In this document: one piece after another, positions 23,423 through 50,969 of the stretch
How positions within the stretch are numbered: position 1 is the first letter of the stretch
Layout of the letters: the number at the start of each line of letters is the position of its first letter
From: Thermoplasmata archaeon
GTDB taxonomy: Archaea > Thermoplasmatota > Thermoplasmata > RBG-16-68-12 > JAFNFQ01
DNA length: 61,987 bases
Direction: 5' to 3'
NCBI GenBank assembly: GCA_041489255.1
Contig: JBGPQV010000015.1
Span: forward strand, 1 to 61,987
Notes under the pieces: model-generated
Told to the model about the DNA's origin: nothing
Seen by the model: the letters and a program-made list of their open reading frames with translations, nothing else
Databases searched by the model: none
Made by a program: the position numbers and the translations under genes

Positions 23423-25669
23423 CTATGCCGACCCGTACGGTGGCTGCTGAGGCGGGTACTGCTGCGGCGGTGGCGGAGCCTGAGGTGGCGGCGCGGGCGA
23501 CTCGGGCGCTCTCATCTTCGGTTTTCGCATCGACATCACCAGTGACAGTATCGAGACTATCAGCACGACGATCACCAGAATCATGAGCAGGTTCTGAGTG
23601 CTTGCCAGATCGTTCTTCGTCGCCATCTGATCCTTGACGGTGCCCATGTCATCGGAGAGCTGAGTGTTCATTTCGTCGATCGCGGTCTGGACGCTCGTCA
23701 GCGTCGTCTGCATGTTCGTTATGCTTGTCTGGAGGGAGGTTATCTGGGTCTGCATGCTGTTTATGTTGGTCTGCAGCGCGTTGATATTGTTCTGGGTCGT
23801 CGCGTTCATGCCGTCGACGAACGTCTGCAGGAGACTCACTTGACTCTGCAGGCCACTAACCGAGGTCTGCAGATTCGCTACCGCAGTCTGCAGGTTGCTG
23901 ATTTCCGTCTGGACGGTCGAAATCTGGGACATGAGGTTAGTGATGTTGTTCTGTAGCTGGTCGATCCTGGTCTGCAGGTTTGTCTCAACGTTCGTCAGTT
24001 GGGTCTGGAGGTTCGAGATCTCTGTCTCAAGCTGGTCGATTCTGTTCTGCAGCGTCGTGTTCATTCCGTTCATCGAGTCCTGGAGGGCAGCTATCTGGGC
24101 CTGCAGAGCCGCGATCATGTCCACGACCGTCGGGCCGACCGTGAACCTCACATAGGTCGGGCTGGACTCATATCCGGCTATGGTGGTCGTGGTGATGGCG
24201 AAGACGTAATCGCCGTTCGCGAGTCCAGTCAAATCAAAGGATGTCTGGGACGGAGAGACGGTGGCCACGAGAGCGGGACTCTCCGGGTTGCATGTCGCAT
24301 CCCAGATCAAGTAGCTCGCCAGGTCGCTCTCGCTGTTCGAATCCCACGTGAGTTGCACCGAGCCCGGTGCAGGCAGCGGCGTTGCAATGAGGTTCTTGAC
24401 TGGATTGGTCGGTCGGTCAATCCATATCGCGTATGCCTCATATCCGTTGGGAGCGCCTTCGTCGCGGGTGTACGACGCGAAGATCGTGTTGTCTGGAGCG
24501 GCGGCCAGTGTCGGCATAATCCCCGAATCCGGAGATAGCGGAACCTCTCGACCGAAGGTTGACCCCCAGTCGGGTGATCTCGCAATCTTCAGTTCAAATG
24601 GTACCGGTGGTGCGTCGAACCAAGCGACATAGACCTCACCGAGGTCGTTCGCAACGATGGTCGGCTTGGTCAAGGTCAAGTCGACATTGTCGTCCAGCCT
24701 GACCTCCATGGCAATGCTCGCGCCATGGTCGAATGAGCGCGTGTAGTATATGCCGCCATTCGTGTTATCCCGCCAAGCGACATGAAGTGTTTCGTGCACG
24801 TCGACATAGAGTGCAGCGTACATCACCTGGTGGTCCGTCTTGGGAACCTTGATGTTGCCCAGCCAGGTCGCGCCACCGTCTCTCGATATGTCCATTAGCA
24901 TTGTCAGACTGTTTTGGTCAAACCAAGATACGTAGACTGTTCCGAGGCTGTCGCACGCGATTGATGGGATGGCCTGCATCACCGTCAAGTCTGTGTTCAC
25001 ACCGTAGCTCGGGCCCCATGTCGTTCCGTTATCAGTCGATGCGCCGAAGTAGATGTCGAGCGTTCCAACGATGCTGTCTGACCACGTGGCGTAGATGTTG
25101 CCGTTGGGGGCCATCGCGATTTCCACAAACACTTCCATGTTCGCGCCAGCAGTGGTGCTGACCCTGGAGCTCGGGCCGAAGGTCGATCCGCCGTCGGTGC
25201 TTCTGGCGATCCGGATATCGCGGCCATTCGTTGCGGCGTCCCTGGTGTCGCTCCATGCGATGTAGATGTCACCGTTCGAAGCAACCAGCATGGCCACCGT
25301 ATGGTAACCGGCCCAGTCATTGTAAACGAATGCACCGCCATCGTTGACGAGGGTATGCCTCGTGAACACGGGGGCTCCTTCCGGGTAAAGCCCGTTGTCG
25401 TCAACCGCCAAGTACAGGTTGCCGTCAGCGCCGGTGTTTCTGAAGTAGGCAACGTATATCTGGCCTTTCGGTCCGACCGCCACGCGGGCGCCAACCTCGT
25501 TGTCTGTCGTACCCTCGCTTGCCCTCACCGGATATGTCGGGGGGTAGGCCATCGTTCCCGGGCTGAACATGGCAAGCACAAAGGCGACCATGAACAGTCC
25601 GCTCACAATGGCACGGAATCGTGCCGATCTGATTGCACTGGTTTCGGACTCGCGTCTGACTGCATCCAT
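23423..25669 (-). CDS. Secreted/membrane-anchored protein: BNR (Asp-box) beta-propeller + FN3 + long coiled-coil + TM + Pro/Gln tail (paralog 1)
   Basis: Signal peptide; repeated S.D.G.TF/W Asp-boxes; LTWDSNSESDLASY (FN3); heptad stalk; TM; ends PPQQPPYGSA. Confidence 0.85.
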   Translation of the reverse strand: MDAVRRESETSAIRSARFRAIVSGLFMVAFVLAMFSPGTMAYPPTYPVRASEGTTDNEVGARVAVGPKGQIYVAYFRNTGADGNLYLAVDDNGLYPEGAPVFTRHTLVNDGGAFVYNDWAGYHTVAMLVASNGDIYIAWSDTRDAATNGRDIRIARSTDGGSTFGPSSRVSTTAGANMEVFVEIAMAPNGNIYATWSDSIVGTLDIYFGASTDNGTTWGPSYGVNTDLTVMQAIPSIACDSLGTVYVSWFDQNSLTMLMDISRDGGATWLGNIKVPKTDHQVMYAALYVDVHETLHVAWRDNTNGGIYYTRSFDHGASIAMEVRLDDNVDLTLTKPTIVANDLGEVYVAWFDAPPVPFELKIARSPDWGSTFGREVPLSPDSGIMPTLAAAPDNTIFASYTRDEGAPNGYEAYAIWIDRPTNPVKNLIATPLPAPGSVQLTWDSNSESDLASYLIWDATCNPESPALVATVSPSQTSFDLTGLANGDYVFAITTTTIAGYESSPTYVRFTVGPTVVDMIAALQAQIAALQDSMNGMNTTLQNRIDQLETEISNLQTQLTNVETNLQTRIDQLQNNITNLMSQISTVQTEISNLQTAVANLQTSVSGLQSQVSLLQTFVDGMNATTQNNINALQTNINSMQTQITSLQTSITNMQTTLTSVQTAIDEMNTQLSDDMGTVKDQMATKNDLASTQNLLMILVIVVLIVSILSLVMSMRKPKMRAPESPAPPPQAPPPPQQYPPQQPPYGSA

Positions 25670-30598: not shown

Positions 30599-30754
30599 AT
30601 CCACCCTCCGATTCACCGGCAAGGCAATAAAGTATGGTCTTTCCATCATCAATTGCCCCTAATTCCTGTCGCTGACTGTTCGGCAGGTTTCGCACAAGGC
30701 TGCCCGCGGGCGAAATCGGGCGCTTTTTCCAACAATTCGACATCATTGAGAGGG

Positions 30755-31270
30755 AAGTCGGGGCAATCGGGAGAGATTCTCGAACAATTGAGAGGATGTC
30801 CGGAACAACCGGAATGGAACTCGGGACGATCGATGTGCACCCCCGAAAGGGTCTCCTTGACCTCGGACAATTGGGACGGACTCCGGCGCAATTGTCCCAA
30901 AGTCTGTAGCGATTGCGAAGGGTTCCGGGACATTCGTCCGGGCTTTGCGGGCAATCGGGGCGGGTTTCCGAACAACTGCGCCGAGGCTCGGGACAATAGG
31001 GATGCTCATTCGGACAAATGTATTGAATATACTCGCACCGGGACGGACGTCGGAACAATCGGGAGGGGTCCGCGCGCAATCGTCCCCACAGCCGGAGCAA
31101 CCGGGATGGACATCGGAGCAATCGAGAAGGGTCCACGGACATTCGTTCCGGGTTCCGGAGCAATTGCCCCAAGAGGCGTTCAGATCGGGATGGAAGCACG
31201 TCCGTATGGGGTGGACACGCCTTCAATCCGATTTAGGTTGCTTCAAGCTGAATATCGCCCGCTTCAAAAT
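30755..31270. repeat. 21-bp-period degenerate array A, about 20 clear units plus a decaying tail; core CGGRRCAATYG (+ strand)
   Basis: CAAT-type cores at 30764, 30785, 30806, 30827, 30868, 30889, 30910, 30931, 30952, 30973, 30994, 31015, 31056, 31077, 31098, 31119, 31140, 31161 and 31224. Confidence 0.85.
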
Positions 31271-31465
31271 GCGTTGCTGTCGACGCTTGTCTCCGGCGGC
31301 ATAGGTCCGGTCGGTTTGACCTCTGCCGGTGTGTGACGACGAGCGGCGCTGTTGATGCGGGATACCGTCAAGATCGAGCCGCGATTGGCGGGAATTTTCT
31401 TTGATATCGTTCATCCCGGGACAGTAACGCCCCCGTATGAACCGTCATCAGATTCGATCGGCATT

Positions 31466-31513
31466 CGAAAAAAGAAAAAATGGCGGGAGTCTGCCGCGAC
31501 CCCCGCCTTGTGG
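31466..31513 (-). terminator. Hairpin + T-tract terminator of helical gene A
   Basis: Minus strand: CAAGGCGGGGGTC-GCGGCA-GACTCCCGCC-ATTTTTTCTTTTTTCG. Confidence 0.75.
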
Positions 31514-31550
31514 ACTTAGGGTATTCCCCCTGACGTATCGCTTGTCGCGA

Positions 31551-31931
31551 TCACTCCGTCTTCATCGGGACGGGCTGAACGGCCGGGGACTCCACGTAGT
31601 CCGACCTGCGGATCCTGCTCCTGAGCCTCCGGATGTTCTTCGCCGCCGGCGACGACTTCTCGACCGCCGTCATCAGGGCGTCGACTCCTCCGGACGTCAG
31701 GTTGTAGAGGCGCTTCAGCCCATCGTTGAGCTGCTTCGTCTTGTCCTTCAGTTGCCTCTTCAGGTCTTCCTGGTCCGCGCCCAAGGCAACGACCTCGTCG
31801 TGGAGCCGCTTCAGGTTCCTCTGCATCGCGTCGGGGTCGTAACCGGCTGTTCTGAGCGCAGCGCCCTCCTCCAGGAAGGTCTTCTGCACGGTCGAAGAGA
31901 AACCGAGCGTCTGTGTTTCGGAAAGGGTCAT
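31551..31931 (-). CDS. Array-associated all-helical protein A (126 aa), function unknown
   Basis: Strong SD GAGGAGGTGA before ATG 31931; ungapped homology to 44163-44531. Confidence 0.8.
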   Translation of the reverse strand: MTLSETQTLGFSSTVQKTFLEEGAALRTAGYDPDAMQRNLKRLHDEVVALGADQEDLKRQLKDKTKQLNDGLKRLYNLTSGGVDALMTAVEKSSPAAKNIRRLRSRIRRSDYVESPAVQPVPMKTE

Positions 31932-32035
31932 CCTTTTTTTCACCTCCTCTTTTTTTCCTTCTCCGCGGAGGGTTCTCGCTTCCCCCGCGGGGAGTGAGTA
32001 AGACGTTGACTGGCGGGTACTTGAAATGGCCCCGT

Positions 32036-32079
32036 CCATCCAAAATGCATGCAGATTGCATCCAATATGCATCCAACAA
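32036..32079. repeat. Four 11-bp tandem repeats, consensus GCATCCAAWAT
   Basis: ccatccaaaat / gcatgcagatt / gcatccaatat / gcatccaacaa. Confidence 0.7.
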
Positions 32080-34512: not shown

Positions 34513-35133
34513 TCACTTCTCCGGTATGGGTTTTCCTTCCTCCATATCCTGGAAAATGCTGGTCAAGTCAACACGCTCGTCGACGGTGTCGAAGAGCTCC
34601 GGCGCCACCGAAGTTTCTCGTGTTTTGACATAGAACAGTCTCACGATTGCTCCAGCGTCTCTCGCAGCCATGACGGCCGCGACATAATCGCCGTCGCCGC
34701 CGACAAGGCCTATGTGCAGTGCCTCCTTCGACCAAGCTATCTTCGTCATCTCCACAGCCAAGAGCACGTCGACCATCTTCTGCTCTATAGTCACGACCTG
34801 TGTCATTGCTGACTGGAATCCCCCATCCTTGAGATAGCCAGATACGGTTGTCTGCTTGCAGTACCCCTTGCGTACCGTGAACCGCTCGAGACGGTCGATG
34901 GCACGCAACTCCTCCTCTTTCTTGCGATACTTCTCCTGCTGCAAGTTCGAAGGATTGTTCCTGTCCTTGAAGGGAAGTGCGTCGAAATAGTACGTGCGGA
35001 ACCGCCAGTGATATCTCGGGACGAGTCGGTTGGCGAAGGATTGCAGATCCCACTTGGCGTCAGAGACGAACCCATGGCGGGCCTTCTCCAGCCACCCGCC
35101 ATCGATGAGGCTGATGGACCTGGATTTGTCCAT
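34513..35133 (-). CDS. NYN/LabA-domain (PIN-like) RNase
   Basis: LIDGGWL, RTYYFDA, EQKMVDVLLAVEM, VGGDGDYV, DTVDER. Confidence 0.9.
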   Translation of the reverse strand: MDKSRSISLIDGGWLEKARHGFVSDAKWDLQSFANRLVPRYHWRFRTYYFDALPFKDRNNPSNLQQEKYRKKEEELRAIDRLERFTVRKGYCKQTTVSGYLKDGGFQSAMTQVVTIEQKMVDVLLAVEMTKIAWSKEALHIGLVGGDGDYVAAVMAARDAGAIVRLFYVKTRETSVAPELFDTVDERVDLTSIFQDMEEGKPIPEK

Positions 35134-35449: not shown

Positions 35450-35839
35450 TCACTCCGACTTCGCTCTCAGGATGATTGTCGCGATCCCGTCCAGGCACAG
35501 CGGTGACAGCTTCCCCTCCGAGCCCTCGCGGATGCACGTCTGCTTCAGGTCGCACTCGGGGCAGAACCGCACGCGGATCTCGCTCTCCTCCAGCTCTAGG
35601 AGGCCCGCCCGATCGAACATCTCGTGCAGGAGCTTCAGGTACTTGCCCTCGGCTATTCGCGGCACGTCGTACTTCGCCGCCTTCAGCCCCCCGCGCGCGG
35701 TCCAGTACTCGTAGAGCCGCCGCGCGCCCTTGGAGCTGTTGCACGGGGCGCAGACCCAGACGGCGTTCTTCTCGTCCTGGGGCCCGTGGAGCGCCCTCGG
35801 GATGAGGTGGTCCAGGGTGAGGTCGGCGCTGGGCAGCAT
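35450..35839 (-). CDS. HNH endonuclease lacking its N-terminal domain
   Basis: LTLDHLIPR..HG....NAVWVCAPCNSSKG, PRIAEGKYLK, C-terminal CPEC; its start context matches those at 38771 and 46257. Confidence 0.75.
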   Translation of the reverse strand: MLPSADLTLDHLIPRALHGPQDEKNAVWVCAPCNSSKGARRLYEYWTARGGLKAAKYDVPRIAEGKYLKLLHEMFDRAGLLELEESEIRVRFCPECDLKQTCIREGSEGKLSPLCLDGIATIILRAKSE

Positions 35840-42228: not shown

Positions 42229-42985
42229 TCGGAAGTCTCCAAAACGGTGGGATTACCTTCGTTGGGTGTCGGATCACATCCATTTTGGGAGTGAGTCATG
42301 GCTGTATTGTATCAGGTTTTGTGGCCGCCTGAGTTATCAGGACTGATGTCCGCCCTAGCGGTAATCTTCGATGGTCGGGGAGGACATGAGGAGGCTGGTC
42401 GCCAGGATGATGCAGCTCATGTTGTTTTATGAAATGAGGCTCGAGTACACGGTGGCGCTGACCCTCTTGCTGACTCCCGAGTACCTCCAATCCCAATGGC
42501 TGCGGACAAAAACGACGAACCATCTGGAGGGGCTATTGAATCCGCGTTACGGGCGCTCTCGGCGGGAGTTCGTCCTTGGCAGCGAGTACATCCATGTCGA
42601 GAAGGCGCTCTCCGGCCATTTCGTGAGATACCTCCCCGAGAGGGGGATGTCGCGCTTGAAACAGGGCCGGAAGTCCAGTCAGGCGCGCTGGGAGCGAACC
42701 TACTCGTGCGCGGAGTTCGCGGCATTGGCGGAACGCGTCGCGATATGGGATTCTGCCTGAATCCTTGGGAGGACGGTGGAGAAGGCGGAGACCGGGGCCT
42801 ACATCAGGGGCGAGTCCTTGGATGATGCGGAGACAAGGCGGGCTAACCGCGGAAAGCCATCGAATCTCTGGCTTCTCGACATAGAGGGATATTATTCACC
42901 GCAGCCGCGTTGATGATCGAAACAGACGATATGACGGTTGTCATTGTGAAGCGTAATGCTCTAGATCGGTGACTTCGTGTCGCCA

Positions 42986-43116: not shown

Positions 43117-43941
43117 TCATCGGGGCGCTAGGAACTCGGCTGTAATTTTGGCAATCTCCTTTTCCTTCTTGCCCCGTGGATGCGGAGCCAATATCCAGTG
43201 CCTGCCTTCGCGGTCTTTTCCCCAGATTACACCATAAGTCCTCGACTCGACCTTCTTGCTTTCCAAGACGTCTATGCCAAAATACTCAGCAAAACTACCG
43301 GATGGTGGATTTCCGGGATCTCCGAAGAATTCTTCGCCCGCCAAAACTACAATGGCTTCTGGGTCGAGCTTTCCGATTTCCATTCGCAGAACGGCCGCAG
43401 ACCTATTCCCGGTCTGTTGATATTCTCTCAACTTCCCAGATGGATTCCCGCTTTTGACTTGCGATTCCTTGTCCTGTGGGTCCATGGTCGGCGATACCTT
43501 GTAGAGGTTAGTCCAATAAATCGTACTCCAGCCATCATAGTCCCTCCAATGGACGTCTTGATGCTCGGAGTTCCTGCGTATATCAATGACCTTTCTAATC
43601 GTGCGCCAGAATTGTGATTTATATACTTTCCATTTCTTCTCCTTGGTGGGCATCGTGTGGATTTCCTCTCTCAGCCAATCCATTCGATTGCCCTCAGAGT
43701 AACCTTGGCTCTTGTCAACGAAGGATTTGACATCACTCTTCAACGCATATACGGTGCTATTCACCACCCAACCATTCACGGCCCTTCCGACAATCATCAG
43801 TCCATTCCTATAATTCCGACCGCGCATGGGCCAGAAGTACGTAAGTTTAATTTCTTCGTCCAACTGATTGGCGAGGTACCCTAAGAGCTCGATGTATGCT
43901 TCCCTGTAGGCATTTCCCAGCAAGCAAGAGTCGGATTCCAT
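43117..43941 (-). CDS. Uracil-DNA-glycosylase-fold hypothetical protein
   Basis: LMIVGRAVNGW, SQFWR, IYWTNLYKVSP, LRMEI..LDP.AIVVLAG, ILAPHP. Confidence 0.6.
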   Translation of the reverse strand: MESDSCLLGNAYREAYIELLGYLANQLDEEIKLTYFWPMRGRNYRNGLMIVGRAVNGWVVNSTVYALKSDVKSFVDKSQGYSEGNRMDWLREEIHTMPTKEKKWKVYKSQFWRTIRKVIDIRRNSEHQDVHWRDYDGWSTIYWTNLYKVSPTMDPQDKESQVKSGNPSGKLREYQQTGNRSAAVLRMEIGKLDPEAIVVLAGEEFFGDPGNPPSGSFAEYFGIDVLESKKVESRTYGVIWGKDREGRHWILAPHPRGKKEKEIAKITAEFLAPR

Positions 43942-44162
43942 AGGGATTCAGATATCGCATCATCTAATTATATTTCTTCGCTCCGTCCCTGCCGAGCATC
44001 GCTTTATCACGCGGGTAGTCTTCCCCGCCTACGATTTCTTTCGCAGATACATCGGTGAGATACCCATAAGCCACCTCCCACCAACATCAGTCACGTGGTC
44101 GAACAAGGGTCGCGATGCGGAGGGAAAATGCCTTTCTGTAGGTCTCAGGGGGTGAACATGCG

Positions 44163-44531
44163 ATGCTGACAGATGCCGACGCGATCGCCTTTGTCAAGAA
44201 GGTAATCGAACTTCTGGAGGGCGAGCGCAAGGCACTGAAAGCAGCCGGTCTCGATGTGGACTTCATGCTGAGCACCCTGACAAACCTGCTAGAGCAGGCA
44301 GCCGCCACGGAGCAGCAGCAGGAGGCCGCAAAGAGGCAGACCAGGGCGTCGACGGAGTCCTGGCTGGCCCTCAAGCGGAAGTCGTACGTCACCGCGTCCG
44401 GTTATCTGGACATGGCGATGGCGGCGGTCTCGAAGGACAGCGCCACGGCGAAGAACTTTCGGCTGATCAGGAGCGCCATGCACCGCCCGATGAAGGGCGA
44501 GGCGCCGATCATCACGCCCGCGAAGGTGTAG
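44163..44531 (+). CDS. Array-associated all-helical protein B (122 aa), function unknown
   Basis: SD GGGGTGA; paralog of 31551-31931 sharing AL..AG.D.D.M, QE..KRQ, Y...SG..D..M.AV.K.S..AKN.R..RS. Confidence 0.8.
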   Translation: MLTDADAIAFVKKVIELLEGERKALKAAGLDVDFMLSTLTNLLEQAAATEQQQEAAKRQTRASTESWLALKRKSYVTASGYLDMAMAAVSKDSATAKNFRLIRSAMHRPMKGEAPIITPAKV

Positions 44532-44562
44532 ACGAGCGCTCCACCCAGAACGGGTTGAAGCC

Positions 44563-44606
44563 CAAGGCCCCCGCAAGGAGGCCACTTTTTCTTTTTTCGT
44601 TTTTCT
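44563..44606 (+). terminator. Hairpin + T-tract terminator of helical gene B
   Basis: CAAGGCCCCC-GCAA-GGAGGCC-ACTTTTTCTTTTTTCG; same flanks as the gene A terminator. Confidence 0.75.
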
Positions 44607-44662
44607 AGTGCTTCATGAATTCTCTGAATTGGCGGGAACACCGCACGACATGGATTGGTGCC

Positions 44663-44977
44663 CGCCACATTCGCCCTAATTGCCTCCACAAGTGGCGGTG
44701 AATGTTCTGCATGTGGAGGAGGTTGCTCCACATGTTGCGGATTTTCCTCCACATGTAGCAGTGGTTCCTCCATATGTCGCGCAGGTACCGCCACGTGTTT
44801 CCGACTCTCCTCCGCATGTTGCAGAGTCAGTCCTGCATGCGGCGGAGGGACCTCCACGTGTTGCGCAAGTCCCGCCATATGTTCACAACTCACCTCCACG
44901 TGTGGGGGAAGTAGCTCCACATGTTCCCGAAGTCAATCTGAATGTTGCGGGAAGACCGCTATATGGAGTGCGTCTTG
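44663..44977. repeat. 21-bp-period array B, 15 units, core CTCCACATGT + 11-bp variable linker
   Basis: Units in exact 21-bp register from 44663 (cgccacattc) to 44957 (cgctatatgg). Confidence 0.9.
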
Positions 44978-47664: not shown

Positions 47665-48384
47665 ATGGCAGTCTTGGTTCTTCTGGACACAAACGTCATT
47701 CTGGCTGCATGCCTGCCGCCCTCCATGGATTCAAAGGGTGGCATGGCCGAGCGATTATTTCGGATTCTGAAGAAGAATGAGATTCGCCCCATGATAACGG
47801 AGACGGTGAAAGAGGAGTTCGAGAAGAAGCTGTACGAAAGAATTGGGTGGATTCTTGACACTCTGCGCTCGCTGTACTCAGGGCCGATGAAGCCCGCGCT
47901 GACCGACGATGTCAACTCTTTGGATATCCTTGAAGGGATTTTCGCGCGGTTGCGGACGGAAACTAAGGAGGCCCTAGGAGCGCTTCAGCTACTTGAAACC
48001 GAAATGGCGGCGAGCATGGAGGAAAAGGAGTCGACAGAGTCTGAGCAATGGGACAATCTGGTTCTGTCACTTACGGCAAAGACGACGATATTGCACGCAG
48101 AAGTCATGAGGCGGTTCGACGCGGCTGGCATCGAGGTCATAGCGAAGCAGCCCTTATCGGACCCAGGGCGGTTCGAGGGGTCTGTCCCCAAGAGCGATGC
48201 GCCGCACATTGCAGCTGCTGAGGCGGTAGCCAAAGCCAAGAGTCGCAAAGTGATCTTCGTGACACTTGACGGTGAGCTTCACGCGAAGAGAGATGAGATC
48301 CATGGAATCGCCTCGGATGTTGTGGTGACGACCCCGCCGTTTCTTCAGAGGCAGATAGAACGGCTCAGTAGCCTCCACCCGTGA
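47665..48384 (+). CDS. PIN-domain protein
   Basis: VLLDTNVI, ITETVKEEF, SDAPHIAAA, FVTLDGEL. Confidence 0.85.
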   Translation: MAVLVLLDTNVILAACLPPSMDSKGGMAERLFRILKKNEIRPMITETVKEEFEKKLYERIGWILDTLRSLYSGPMKPALTDDVNSLDILEGIFARLRTETKEALGALQLLETEMAASMEEKESTESEQWDNLVLSLTAKTTILHAEVMRRFDAAGIEVIAKQPLSDPGRFEGSVPKSDAPHIAAAEAVAKAKSRKVIFVTLDGELHAKRDEIHGIASDVVVTTPPFLQRQIERLSSLHP

Positions 48385-49750: not shown

Positions 49751-50839
49751 CTACTTGCTGAATTCCGTTAATGTCCGCTGGAGCTTCAGACCCGAATCCC
49801 AATCCAAAGTGTCGCCCTCGAACTCGCACCGATAGAGGCCTTGCAGGTTCGAAGGAACCTCAATGCGCTTATCCCAAAGCAGGATGACCTTCTTCTTGTA
49901 AAGAACTGTCGCCGCGCCAATCTCGATCAGGACGTTGTCGTTGATTTTGTAGACCTCAATGCCTTCAGCATCCTTCACCTTTTCGTCTGCGCTGACGATG
50001 GTGATGCCCGCTTGGCACTGGTGCATGTCCGCAATTACCTTCTCTGGAACAGGAATCGCAGTCGCCTCGCGCTCCTGGGACACTACGGCGTTGAACTTTC
50101 CGAACTCCACAATCTGCTTGACTTGGTCGAGGAGGCGCCGATTCTTTCCATGGGCGATGAACACCGAGTGGACGGCGGTGGGCGGAGGGGGAGTAGCGGG
50201 AGAGGGGGGCGTCAACGGTGGCTTCTCCTTTGCGCCCGCGCCGGTGTCTTCTTCCTCCTCACCTCCGAGCTCTGTCAGGACTGGAGGCGGAGCGGCCTCG
50301 CTGGACAACCACTTACCCGTTTGGGCGGTTCGAACCAGCCCCACAAATTCCATGTTTGCTGTGAATATCTCGACGCACTGTGCGGCATGCTCGCGCGGGA
50401 CCTCGAACTCCCTGACGATGGTATTTTGGAGGAAGGATGGGTCCGGTAGTTTCTTTCCCTTCAGGTACTCATATATTCGCCTGAAGGTGGGAGGTGTGAA
50501 GGCGGCGGCAACAAGAGCTTGCTTCTTGGCCTCTTCACTGGTCGGCTCCACAATGTTGCGGCCGTTGTCCTTGATTGCGATTCTGTCCGCCTGGTAGCTT
50601 CCAGTCGTCAGACCGTACTTCAGAGAAGAGGCCAAAATGATCCGGAATCCGGATCCGCCAGGGCTCACTCCGATGGCAATCGCCGTGTCCGTGGGCGGAA
50701 GAGGCTGCCCGCCATTTTTATCCTGCACAGCCTTCGCGACCTTCAGTGCCTCCTGGAGTGTGTGCTTCGGGAAATCGCTCTTGACCTTGCCTCTCAGTCC
50801 ACCGCCGCCCGTTCGAGCTGCCACTCCTTTCTTCTGCAT
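49751..50839 (-). CDS. TIR-like (CAP12/Pycsar-effector type) domain protein with a putative DNA-binding N-terminal domain
   Basis: VFIAHGKN, EKV...M.QCQAGI, NDNVLIEIG (catalytic Glu), VPSNLQG; Pro-rich linker. Confidence 0.8.
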   Translation of the reverse strand: MQKKGVAARTGGGGLRGKVKSDFPKHTLQEALKVAKAVQDKNGGQPLPPTDTAIAIGVSPGGSGFRIILASSLKYGLTTGSYQADRIAIKDNGRNIVEPTSEEAKKQALVAAAFTPPTFRRIYEYLKGKKLPDPSFLQNTIVREFEVPREHAAQCVEIFTANMEFVGLVRTAQTGKWLSSEAAPPPVLTELGGEEEEDTGAGAKEKPPLTPPSPATPPPPTAVHSVFIAHGKNRRLLDQVKQIVEFGKFNAVVSQEREATAIPVPEKVIADMHQCQAGITIVSADEKVKDAEGIEVYKINDNVLIEIGAATVLYKKKVILLWDKRIEVPSNLQGLYRCEFEGDTLDWDSGLKLQRTLTEFSK

Positions 50840-50969
50840 CAACACACCCCTCTTGGGGACATCCTACATGAAGCCTGGGATAATAAAGCTGCGCCAGGAG
50901 AGCTTCAGTGCGGAAATCTCCCGCTGGGCCCCCAAGACATCCTCGATCGGCAGGCCCTGGTGTTGCAGG

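Follow-up and report, generated by a model that had tools for sequence, protein, structure and literature searches.

A recurrent module in a Thermoplasmata genome: a paralogous helical protein, a conserved hairpin and a 21-bp array with a copy-specific core

Introduction

What kind of genetic element consists of a gene for a small helical protein, a terminator-like hairpin and, behind these, a long array of degenerate units repeated every 21 bp? Such an element, module B (positions 44163-44977), lies on a contig of 61,987 nucleotides from a Thermoplasmata archaeon (contig JBGPQV010000015.1 of assembly GCA_041489255.1), and this whole contig is the window analyzed here. A second copy in the window, module A, has the same layout and a different array core. 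We found that paralogous helical protein, conserved hairpin with T-run, and 21-bp array with a copy-specific core form a recurrent module in the host genome and in related genomes, and that the arrays are non-coding. We propose, with a probability that we put at roughly 40%, that the arrays are cognate double-stranded DNA binding sites, which would be coated by the protein encoded next to them.

Module B and its paralog

In a tblastn search of the whole genome, protein B aligned with protein A of module A without gaps over 118 columns (residues 3-120), with 39/118 identical residues (33.05%, E = 1.6e-11). Behind both genes, a GC-rich hairpin is followed by GCCAYTTTTTCTTTTTTCG, which occurs exactly twice in the window, at 44581-44599 on the plus strand and at 31466-31484 on the minus strand; none of 100 shuffles matched. 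Hairpins of the CAAGGCCCCC-loop-GGGGGCCAC-T-run kind stand behind most of the 16 family genes examined.

The units of 19 arrays were called with a position-weight-matrix plus chaining analysis. For array B this gave 15 units with the consensus GCgGAggtaCCTCCACATGTt, and all 14 steps between them measure exactly 21 bp; the self-match at lag 21 peaks at 0.62-0.66. Tandem Repeats Finder alone reported only 44710-44798 of the array (period 21, 4.2 copies, 72% matches). The core of array A, CCCGATTG(TTCCGG), also written (C)CCGATTG(TTCCGG), is unrelated to that of array B. The first-pass annotation, made from the letters of the window, had described a gapless paralogy with 39 of 118 identities, a terminator common to both copies, fifteen units in exact 21-bp register and unrelated cores, and all of these descriptions were reproduced, the terminator sequence being found at both modules and nowhere else in the window. 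Feature coordinates are collected in Table 1.

Linkage of the protein family to 21-bp arrays

At the host loci, a lag-21 self-match of at least 0.45 within 1.1 kb downstream of the gene was counted as an array signal; the genomic background is 10% (256/2468 tiles of 1.1 kb). A profile of the paralogs gave 20 matches in the host genome, 12 of them full length. A lag-21 array comes after 16 of these 20 matches (the 12 full genes plus 4 gene fragments), two of these loci, C17 and C6, being marginal at 0.48. We then took all loci with enough flank, 33 in number after the metagenome locus L039 had been dropped as a duplicate of L038. The signal lies downstream of the gene at 29 and upstream at 4 of them. 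By origin, the downstream signal was found at 12/12 loci of the own genome, 9/9 of a same-genus genome, 4/8 of another family of the order and 4/4 from metagenomes. Two loci with an upstream signal belong to a more distant archaeal family, namely L025 (G006) at 0.62 and L018 (G021) at 0.54; neither has a downstream signal, and the upstream one may belong to an adjacent fragment.

The 21-bp period is also distinctive when the genome is scanned without reference to the family (168-bp window, at least 52% self-match, lags 9 to 45). Lag 21 gave 26 periodic segments in the 2.74-Mb genome, and the other lags gave at most 5 each, except for the harmonic lag 42 with 18. Thirteen of the 26 segments adjoin family genes, 10 are orphan arrays of the same kind, and 3 lie inside long real open reading frames (ORFs). 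One of these three is the 748-amino-acid ORF of the window (Table 1), where the 21-bp periodicity at 23603-24015 is coding (heptad) and where coiled-coil Pfam and BNR_2 matches were found. The linkage between protein family and array, which the first-pass annotation had made the touchstone of its proposal, thus extends beyond the window.

The same profile gave 17 matches in the same-genus genome. Within one other family of the order, 4 genomes had 2-5 matches apiece, and 34 genomes from the other five sampled families had none. A 400-genome sample of the phylum added only one further genome. In a library of 1.84 billion proteins, the profile found 331 representatives at E<=1e-3, all of them unnamed or 'hypothetical'. 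Some metagenomic members are fused or tandem-duplicated, with two matched stretches each (P0061, P0067, P0130 and P0150, of 234-264 amino acids, and P0115, of 425). A close-relative search with protein B found no relatives in the searched genome contigs, and one with a paralog as query gave a single locus (L042). The ESM Atlas clusters nearest to protein B (score 0.96) are unnamed proteins of 118-126 amino acids labelled Acidobacteriota and Myxococcota, and the family may reach into bacteria.

The host assembly comprises 2.74 Mb in 41 contigs at ~59% G+C and is 96% complete; the archaeal Rfam model scores its small-subunit rRNA at 1487 bits, the bacterial model at 1076 bits. The DNA of the window is present in 6 sediment metagenome DNA runs, and contigs from 4 of these runs are identical to it, with zero variants or joints. 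Several arrays stand at contig ends (C9:130-468 and C16:179-464 in the host; also L016, L043 and L044), and several contigs of the related genome end directly after a family gene. The arrays therefore seem to break short-read assemblies, so that the copy numbers given here are lower bounds and, since arrays end contigs in two assemblies, the family is probably under-sampled in metagenome bins. At two host sites, C2:253074-253223 and C36:7481-7588, a C-terminal fragment of a second family gene directly follows the array of an intact module, which indicates that modules can lie in tandem or insert beside one another.

The arrays are non-coding

None of the six frames stays open in all arrays. 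Array C3, for instance, has no open stretch longer than 59% of the array whichever of the six frames is read, and stop codons interrupt each sense frame of arrays C3, C7, C2b and C13. In 13/19 arrays, some steps measure 20 or 22 bp; they shift the frame and leave the DNA core aligned, and in array A the same DNA core falls in different frames in the two halves of the array. We compared the arrays of 6 ortholog pairs. Their alignments contain gap runs of 21, 21, 21, 42, 42 and 21 bp and three smaller gaps (1, 2 and 17 bp), so arrays change mostly by whole units. Substitutions are spread flatly over the three codon phases in 5/6 pairs (e.g., identities of 124/140, 125/139 and 123/139). The exception is array B with its ortholog L037, where the phase identities are 79/105, 73/104 and 61/104 (chi-square p ~0.02 before correction for six tests) and the least conserved phase is the third position of the PPHV frame; we treat this bias as chance. 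A translated, conserved heptad protein had been raised in the first-pass annotation as the alternative to a DNA-level array, with per-position substitution analysis as the means of telling them apart. The broken frames, the one-nucleotide slips, the 21- and 42-bp indels and the five flat pairs speak strongly against it.

Dyad symmetry of the array units

The consensus unit is an inverted repeat in nearly every array, such as GGACAATTGTCC, TCACCATGGTGA, GTCCCGACCGGGAC, CCAGAC-n4-GTCTGG and TTCGCC-n4-GGCGAA, with CCNCCACATGTNGCGG in array B. An inverted-repeat unit combined with a 21-bp period places one dyad axis in the core and a second in the linker of each unit. Watson-Crick pairing within single units is no higher than expected from column composition in 15/19 arrays (|z|<2), with z -1.0 for array B. 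The combined pairing excess has a z of 3.2 (with wobble allowed, 3.07 on the sense and 3.29 on the antisense strand), values that are inflated because the best among 52 registers was chosen. Compared with shuffles, array B folds better on either strand (z -3.8 and -4.1), and the predicted minimum-energy fold shows no regular hairpin per unit. The arrays have 55-65% G+C, and their sense strand carries slightly more T than A. On balance, the symmetry resides in the consensus and is not upheld pair by pair, which fits a double-stranded site of a symmetric protein and not a structured RNA.

Predicted structure of protein B

The AlphaFold2 model of protein B, built from a 105-sequence alignment, has a mean predicted local distance difference test score (pLDDT) of 94.6 and consists of helices at residues 4-27, 32-88 and 94-106, followed by a proline-rich tail. 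The protein has no Pfam match, its best NCBIfam match (E = 0.0021) is to an unrelated SDR family, and nothing better than E = 0.5 was found among PDB sequences. Foldseek searches of the PDB and BFVD with the model gave E>=1.3. The VIA fold search gave a best Z of 7.0, within the generic helical range of that tool, with Mediator, kinetochore, Snf7 and CdvA proteins among the matches.

The last helix, (A)KNFRRIRS+I+R, is conserved, and residues 91-112 are the sole basic part of the protein (+3 to +8). Homodimer prediction gave a score of 0.64, the best of 3 controls reaching 0.00; the runs agree in at least 71% of the contacts, and the partner has a pLDDT of at least 73. This mark was reached by 20/30 proteins solved as one-chain pairs and by 1/23 solved as single chains. 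From the predicted contacts (39-78, 42-74, 35-81 and 14-78), the long helices would run antiparallel, with the dyad near residue 58. The predicted assembly is thus a homodimer of antiparallel subunits, either end of which carries a basic helix.

Evolution of gene and array

Arrays share a core when their proteins are at least 80% identical, as in the pairs A/G1_C4 (98%), C3/G1_C52 (97%), C2a/C36 (87%), C2b/G1_C86 (86%) and B/L037 (80%). The pair C1/G1_C68, at 76%, has similar cores, and in the other pairs at 79% or less the cores are different or merely related. Unit for unit, the arrays of B and L037 run colinear apart from a single whole-unit indel; their turnover is therefore slow. Between these two loci, 74% of the core columns (122/165), 61% of the linker columns (92/150) and 65% of the 4-fold sites of the gene (32/49) are identical. 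In this comparison, single units drift almost neutrally while the consensus persists.

Flanking DNA of the host and the same-genus genome is ~92-95% identical. Module A is a discrete block of 1.27 kb, 92% identical in the same-genus genome, with flanks that are unrelated or only 71% identical. Two other modules have outpaced their flanks in divergence by far: C2b is 76% identical where its flank at the syntenic site is 93% identical, and C1 is also at 76%. Duplicated copies in the host retain the array, with the gene truncated to varying extents. In the C13 class, for example, one of the five copies is full length and the others have their 5' ends at -169, -128, +34 and +100 nt as counted from the stop codon; the array is present in each of the five. 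The matrices of gene-linked arrays also recognize ten orphan arrays (z 14-26), so one intact gene may correspond to 3-5 arrays. Gene and array thus descend and duplicate together as a single block, and they co-diverge. The first-pass annotation had read the change of core between A and B as protein-array co-evolution. That reading stands for the joint divergence, the inheritance as a block and the sharing of cores at 80% protein identity or more; it does not extend to the conserved basic helix, which is almost invariant despite the differing cores.

Matches scoring like a typical single unit number from 46 to 32,369 in the genome, depending on the matrix. Single sites are therefore weak, and phasing would have to carry the specificity.

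Leaders and upstream repeats

Many family genes are preceded, 60-130 bp upstream, by 3-5 short repeats with an 11-bp period (upstream regions of L001-L008). These repeats differ per paralog, e.g., GTGAATTCACC, CAAGTTCCGCA, TGCAAGCACCC and CACAGTGTTTT, and GAAGATACATCC-related motifs occur upstream of the closest paralogs of B and of one ortholog. Proteins A and G1_C4 are 98% identical, yet their upstream repeats differ, and the repeat of G1_C4 equals that of paralog C9, which suggests recombination at the leader. A possible cross-regulation, with upstream repeats resembling the cores of other modules, was looked for by eye, without statistics, and gave no convincing match.

Distant paralogs share a leader (e.g., 31932-32024 on the minus strand) in which CCAAYGTC is followed by a CCCCTCCGGAGGAGGGG-type hairpin containing GGAGG and, ahead of the ATG, by purine-rich sequence; this leader may control translation. 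A TAG stop ends 13/16 family genes; among genome ORFs of at least 350 amino acids, TAG makes up 303/785 stops (39%). As an explanation of the frequent TAG stops, a methanogen or pyrrolysine setting was considered and rejected, since the assembly gave no McrA match and no PylS match above the cut-off.

Genomic context

The first-pass annotation had placed module B between HNH fragments and among nuclease genes, as a hint at mobility or defence. This placement was not borne out. The sole HNH match in the window (PF01844) lies ~8 kb from module B, and the ORFs flanking the module have no Pfam match. A 321-amino-acid ORF downstream has weak matches to DUF5655 (E = 3.8e-4) and NucS_C (E = 0.093), both below the curated cut-offs. 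The hint at defence fared no better: the 14 other host loci stand beside unrelated, housekeeping-type genes, including those of TBP, ribosomal protein L1, Alba and OMP decarboxylase, with no shared neighbour, and homologs of protein B were not detected by tblastn in phage and plasmid collections, nor were any found for protein B and a paralog in viral contigs by close-relative search.

The flanking genes were surveyed with a Pfam scan of 81 flanking ORFs at the 14 loci, together with the window neighbours. A conserved partner beside the modules (ATPase, nuclease or integrase) was sought in these scans and rejected, since none recurs. Retro-mobility, prompted by the 5'-truncated copies, was likewise rejected, as the assembly has no RVT_1 match. 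In the window itself, a CAP12/Pycsar-effector TIR protein of 364 amino acids (E = 1.9e-19) is encoded beyond module B, with PIN and NYN proteins and the HNH match in the vicinity. Here the contig resembles a variable or defence-type island; elsewhere the repeat modules lie outside such islands.

Table 1. Features of modules A and B and of their surroundings in the window
Feature	Position	Strand	Description
Gene of protein B	44163..44531	+	ORF; 122 amino acids, all-helical, TAG stop, family without annotation
Hairpin and T-run B	44566..44604	+	GC-rich hairpin GGCCCCCGCAAGGAGGCC (44566-44583), then TTTTTCTTTTTTCGTTTTT (44586-44604); terminator-like, conserved among paralogs
Array B	44653..44967	.	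15 units, core CCTCCACATGT(TGCGG); degenerate units out to ~44615 and 44977; non-coding
Upstream repeat B	44045..44065	+	AGATACATC..GAGATACCC, ~100-120 bp before the start codon, read from the sequence
Gene of protein A	31551..31931	-	126 amino acids, paralog of B
Hairpin and T-run A	31466..31507	-	GGCGGGGGTC..GACTCCCGCC plus T-run
Array A	30747..31164	.	18-20 units, period 21 bp (17 steps measure 21 bp, 2 measure 20 bp); core CCCGATTGTTCCGG
Module A, conserved block	30757..32024	-	Same-genus genome comparison; starts in the leader, ~93 bp ahead of the ATG, and reaches the last array units
Upstream repeat A	32037..32076	-	TGGATGCA-like, 11-bp period, Tandem Repeats Finder
748-amino-acid ORF	23423..25669	-	Lag-21 segment inside a long real ORF
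NYN protein	34516..35133
HNH match (PF01844)	35720..35827
ORF flanking module B	42371..42760	+	No Pfam match
ORF flanking module B	43117..43941	-	No Pfam match
PIN protein	47665..48384
TIR protein	49754..50845	-	CAP12/Pycsar-effector type

Discussion

We suggest that the module pairs a small, dimeric, rod-like helical protein with a private non-coding array of weak dyad-symmetric sites, set 21 bp or two helical turns apart. The protein would form an antiparallel coiled-coil dimer that carries one arginine-rich C-terminal helix at either end of the rod. By arithmetic (~30 residues x 1.5 Å x 2) and not by measurement, the helix ends of the predicted dimer would lie ~88 Å apart, which is of the order of 21 bp (71 Å). 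Such dimers would bind cooperatively along one face of the array, neighbouring dimers meeting at each palindromic core, and the outcome would be a nucleoprotein filament coating the array or a bridging of arrays of the same class. Specificity would come from many phased weak sites instead of one strong site, and one intact gene could serve several arrays of its class in trans. Phased binding by a symmetric dimer would account for the 21-bp period and the free linker, for the presence of two dyads in each unit and the weak single sites, and also for the private cores and the arrays retained without genes. In the cell, such an array may act as a chromosome-organizing, centromere-like, insulating or roadblock element. 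A wider proposal is that these modules make up a new class of archaeal chromatin elements, in which rod-shaped dimers with a dozen or more orthogonal specificities per genome, each with its own 21-bp-phased palindromic satellite and turning over together with it in the manner of centromere drive, would serve as landmarks for pairing, segregation or insulation; this we regard as possible but doubtful.

Several observations weigh against DNA binding by the adjacent protein. Protein B has no DNA-binding fold that could be recognized by Pfam, PDB, Foldseek or VIA searches. Outside the basic helix the protein is neutral or acidic, which does not favour a rod lying along DNA. The basic helix is nearly identical in paralogs with unrelated cores (e.g., C17, C3 and C34); it therefore cannot carry the specificity, which would have to reside in the variable N-terminal helices. 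Single units evolve near the neutral rate (68% identity in the B/L037 array against 65% at 4-fold sites), and the arrays are less conserved than the genes: 372/418 (89%) against 370/375 (99%) in A, and 302/333 (91%) against 358/366 (98%) in C3. As for linkage, a divergent paralog in the host (C13:53324) and three short C-terminal fragments, themselves lying after an array, are without an array of their own, and in the other family of the order the array is downstream at only half of the eight loci and upstream instead at 2. Finally, among raw mismatches at preselected symmetric positions of the sense strand, G.T (148) exceeds A.C (90), a difference that disappears once column composition is controlled.

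This raw G.T excess is what an RNA-level module would lead one to expect, in which the array is transcribed, by read-through or from its own promoter, into tandem short hairpins bound by the arginine-rich helix, as a ribonucleoprotein, a sponge or an autoregulatory 3' region. Such a module could be likened loosely to the RNA repeats of type III toxin-antitoxin systems or to CsrB-type sponges, and an arginine-rich helix is a classical RNA-binding element; here it is the sole invariant part of the family, which would suit recognition of shape over sequence. The array lies on the 3' side of the gene, flanking half-cores of the 21-bp dyad units can pair around the variable linker as a loop, and both strands of array B fold better than shuffles. 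Equal folding of both strands, however, is expected of any DNA palindrome, and the fold lacks a regular hairpin per unit. Covariation above column composition is missing in 15/19 arrays, with no strand difference after control; a strong hairpin plus T-run separates gene and array in nearly all copies; the gene order is opposite to that of ToxIN-type loci; and zero Rfam families matched in the window. We consider action at the RNA level rather unlikely. That the array instead encodes a heptad-repeat peptide, PPHVAxV or S-T-C-C-G-x-S in copy B, is scarcely credible. ORFs of 103 and 107 amino acids do span array B on the plus strand, and the third positions of the PPHV frame are the least conserved between B and L037 and, in 4/7 codons, the least informative within the array. 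Against this stand the flat phases of the remaining 5 ortholog pairs, the stops in every sense frame of four arrays, the register slips and the two reading frames of the array A core; moreover, the frame in array B opens at a TTG right behind a TAA, without a Shine-Dalgarno sequence, and the core changes within the array are non-conservative in that frame (His, Tyr, Arg).

The array could also be a selfish or neutral satellite, that is, part of a duplicating gene-plus-array block homogenized by slippage or unequal exchange, whose protein acts elsewhere or for the element; this explanation is compatible with binding, and as a rival to it we hold it to be unlikely though by no means negligible. 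The discrete block of module A between unrelated flanks, the five C13-class copies with varied 5' ends that all keep the array, the 10 orphan arrays, the indels of whole units, the module that is far less conserved than its flank at one syntenic site, the arrays that terminate contigs in two assemblies and the near-neutral evolution per site all speak for it. Slippage alone, though, would homogenize entire units, whereas only a core of 8-12 bp is kept and the linker is free; and period, dyad and position after the gene persist across two families of the order and between paralogs with no more than 32-40% identity, which needs selection. The slow turnover of the colinear B and L037 arrays also tells against it, as do the lack of integrase or transposase families in the Pfam scans of flanking ORFs, of a reverse transcriptase (PF00078) in the 96%-complete assembly, and of copies in phage, plasmid or viral collections. 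A further reading is anti-virus or anti-plasmid defence, with the linkers as short spacers of a CRISPR-like memory. The TIR, PIN and NYN proteins and the HNH match of the window, and the faster divergence of some modules than of their flanks, are in its favour; but the linkers, of ~10 nt, are colinear and ~61% conserved between orthologs, a slow drift with no polarized gain, the other 14 loci lie among housekeeping genes without a common neighbour, and the Pfam scan found no nuclease, helicase or cas-like partner recurring beside the modules. A defence role is accordingly very improbable.

Among known systems, the proposed DNA-coating module comes closest to plasmid centromeres: ParR-parC (R1, pSK41), SopB-sopC (F), the omega protein with its heptad arrays, and TubR-tubC. 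In these, the gene of a small dimeric protein adjoins the tandemly arrayed sites of that protein, which are short, often dyad-symmetric, helix-phased, weak and numerous, are coated cooperatively and have a specificity private to the system; here the corresponding binding properties are putative. On plasmid F, sopC lies just downstream of sopB, as the array lies after the gene here. Plasmid centromeres differ in having a ParA, ParM or TubZ NTPase gene, which stands beside none of the 14 loci scanned; neither the flanking ORFs there nor the window neighbours matched a ParA, CbiA or actin-like family. ParR, ParG and omega have a ribbon-helix-helix N-terminus, whereas the model of protein B is all-helical with no strand and no Pfam match; ParB and SopB (type Ia) have a ParB/Srx N-terminal domain and a helix-turn-helix (HTH), neither of which protein B matches in Pfam or NCBIfam. 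Furthermore, the modules occur as a dozen chromosomal copies per genome in an archaeal host, with a period of 21 bp and 15-30 units. ToxIN loci also have a protein gene and a short-repeat array split by a terminator, with family-specific repeats, but these are 2-6 repeats of ~36 nt that act as RNA and stand before the gene of an endoribonuclease toxin; in the present module a plain helical rod is encoded, and 15-30 repeats of 21 bp come after its gene, with no covariation and no Rfam match. CRISPR arrays have near-identical repeats of 23-50 bp with unique spacers of similar length and accompanying cas genes, in contrast to the 21-bp period, degenerate 8-12-bp core and ~10-bp linker seen here; no cas family was found among the neighbours of the modules in the Pfam scan, and orthologous arrays are colinear. 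Iteron origins combine an adjacent Rep initiator gene with an AT-rich unwinding element, whereas the modules have no Rep-type family among their neighbours and arrays of 55-65% G+C. Two analogies remain, both without homology and at a scale here of hundreds of bp: eukaryotic centromeric satellites under 'centromere drive', where the array consensus turns over in concert while the linked protein diverges, and H-NS-like bridging proteins, which have an antiparallel coiled coil with a nucleic-acid-binding end on each side, as we infer for protein B.

KfrA of plasmid RA3 is a 345-amino-acid autoregulator with an N-terminal HTH and an alpha-helical coiled coil; it works with KorB/IncC, and its dimers or oligomers bind five 9-bp repeats that overlap the promoter of its gene (PMC7783346). 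It resembles the present family as a long self-associating alpha-helical protein, and short repeats, with an 11-bp period, also precede the family genes. With Pfam and NCBIfam scans as the means of comparison, KfrA differs in that the present family has ~125 amino acids, no HTH detected by Pfam and a large array downstream of the gene; in addition, the upstream repeats here are not tied to protein identity, as A and G1_C4 demonstrate. Full-text searches, supplements excluded, found no description of such modules. According to a survey of prokaryotic satellites, dispersed non-coding satellite families with long repeats are rare (PMC6749651). The module thus stands outside the known kinds of system compared here, and its function is a matter we infer.

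If the proteins bind the arrays, they would represent a new DNA-recognition fold and the modules a new kind of archaeal chromosomal element, with many orthogonal protein-satellite pairs that have diverged together in one small genome. This would bear on the organization and segregation of archaeal chromosomes and provide a natural experiment in the co-evolution of repeats and proteins. Should the modules act as chromatin elements, the orthogonal protein-array pairs might be usable as DNA tags. Even as selfish satellites, they would be an unusual gene-linked, dispersed, non-coding satellite family for a prokaryote.

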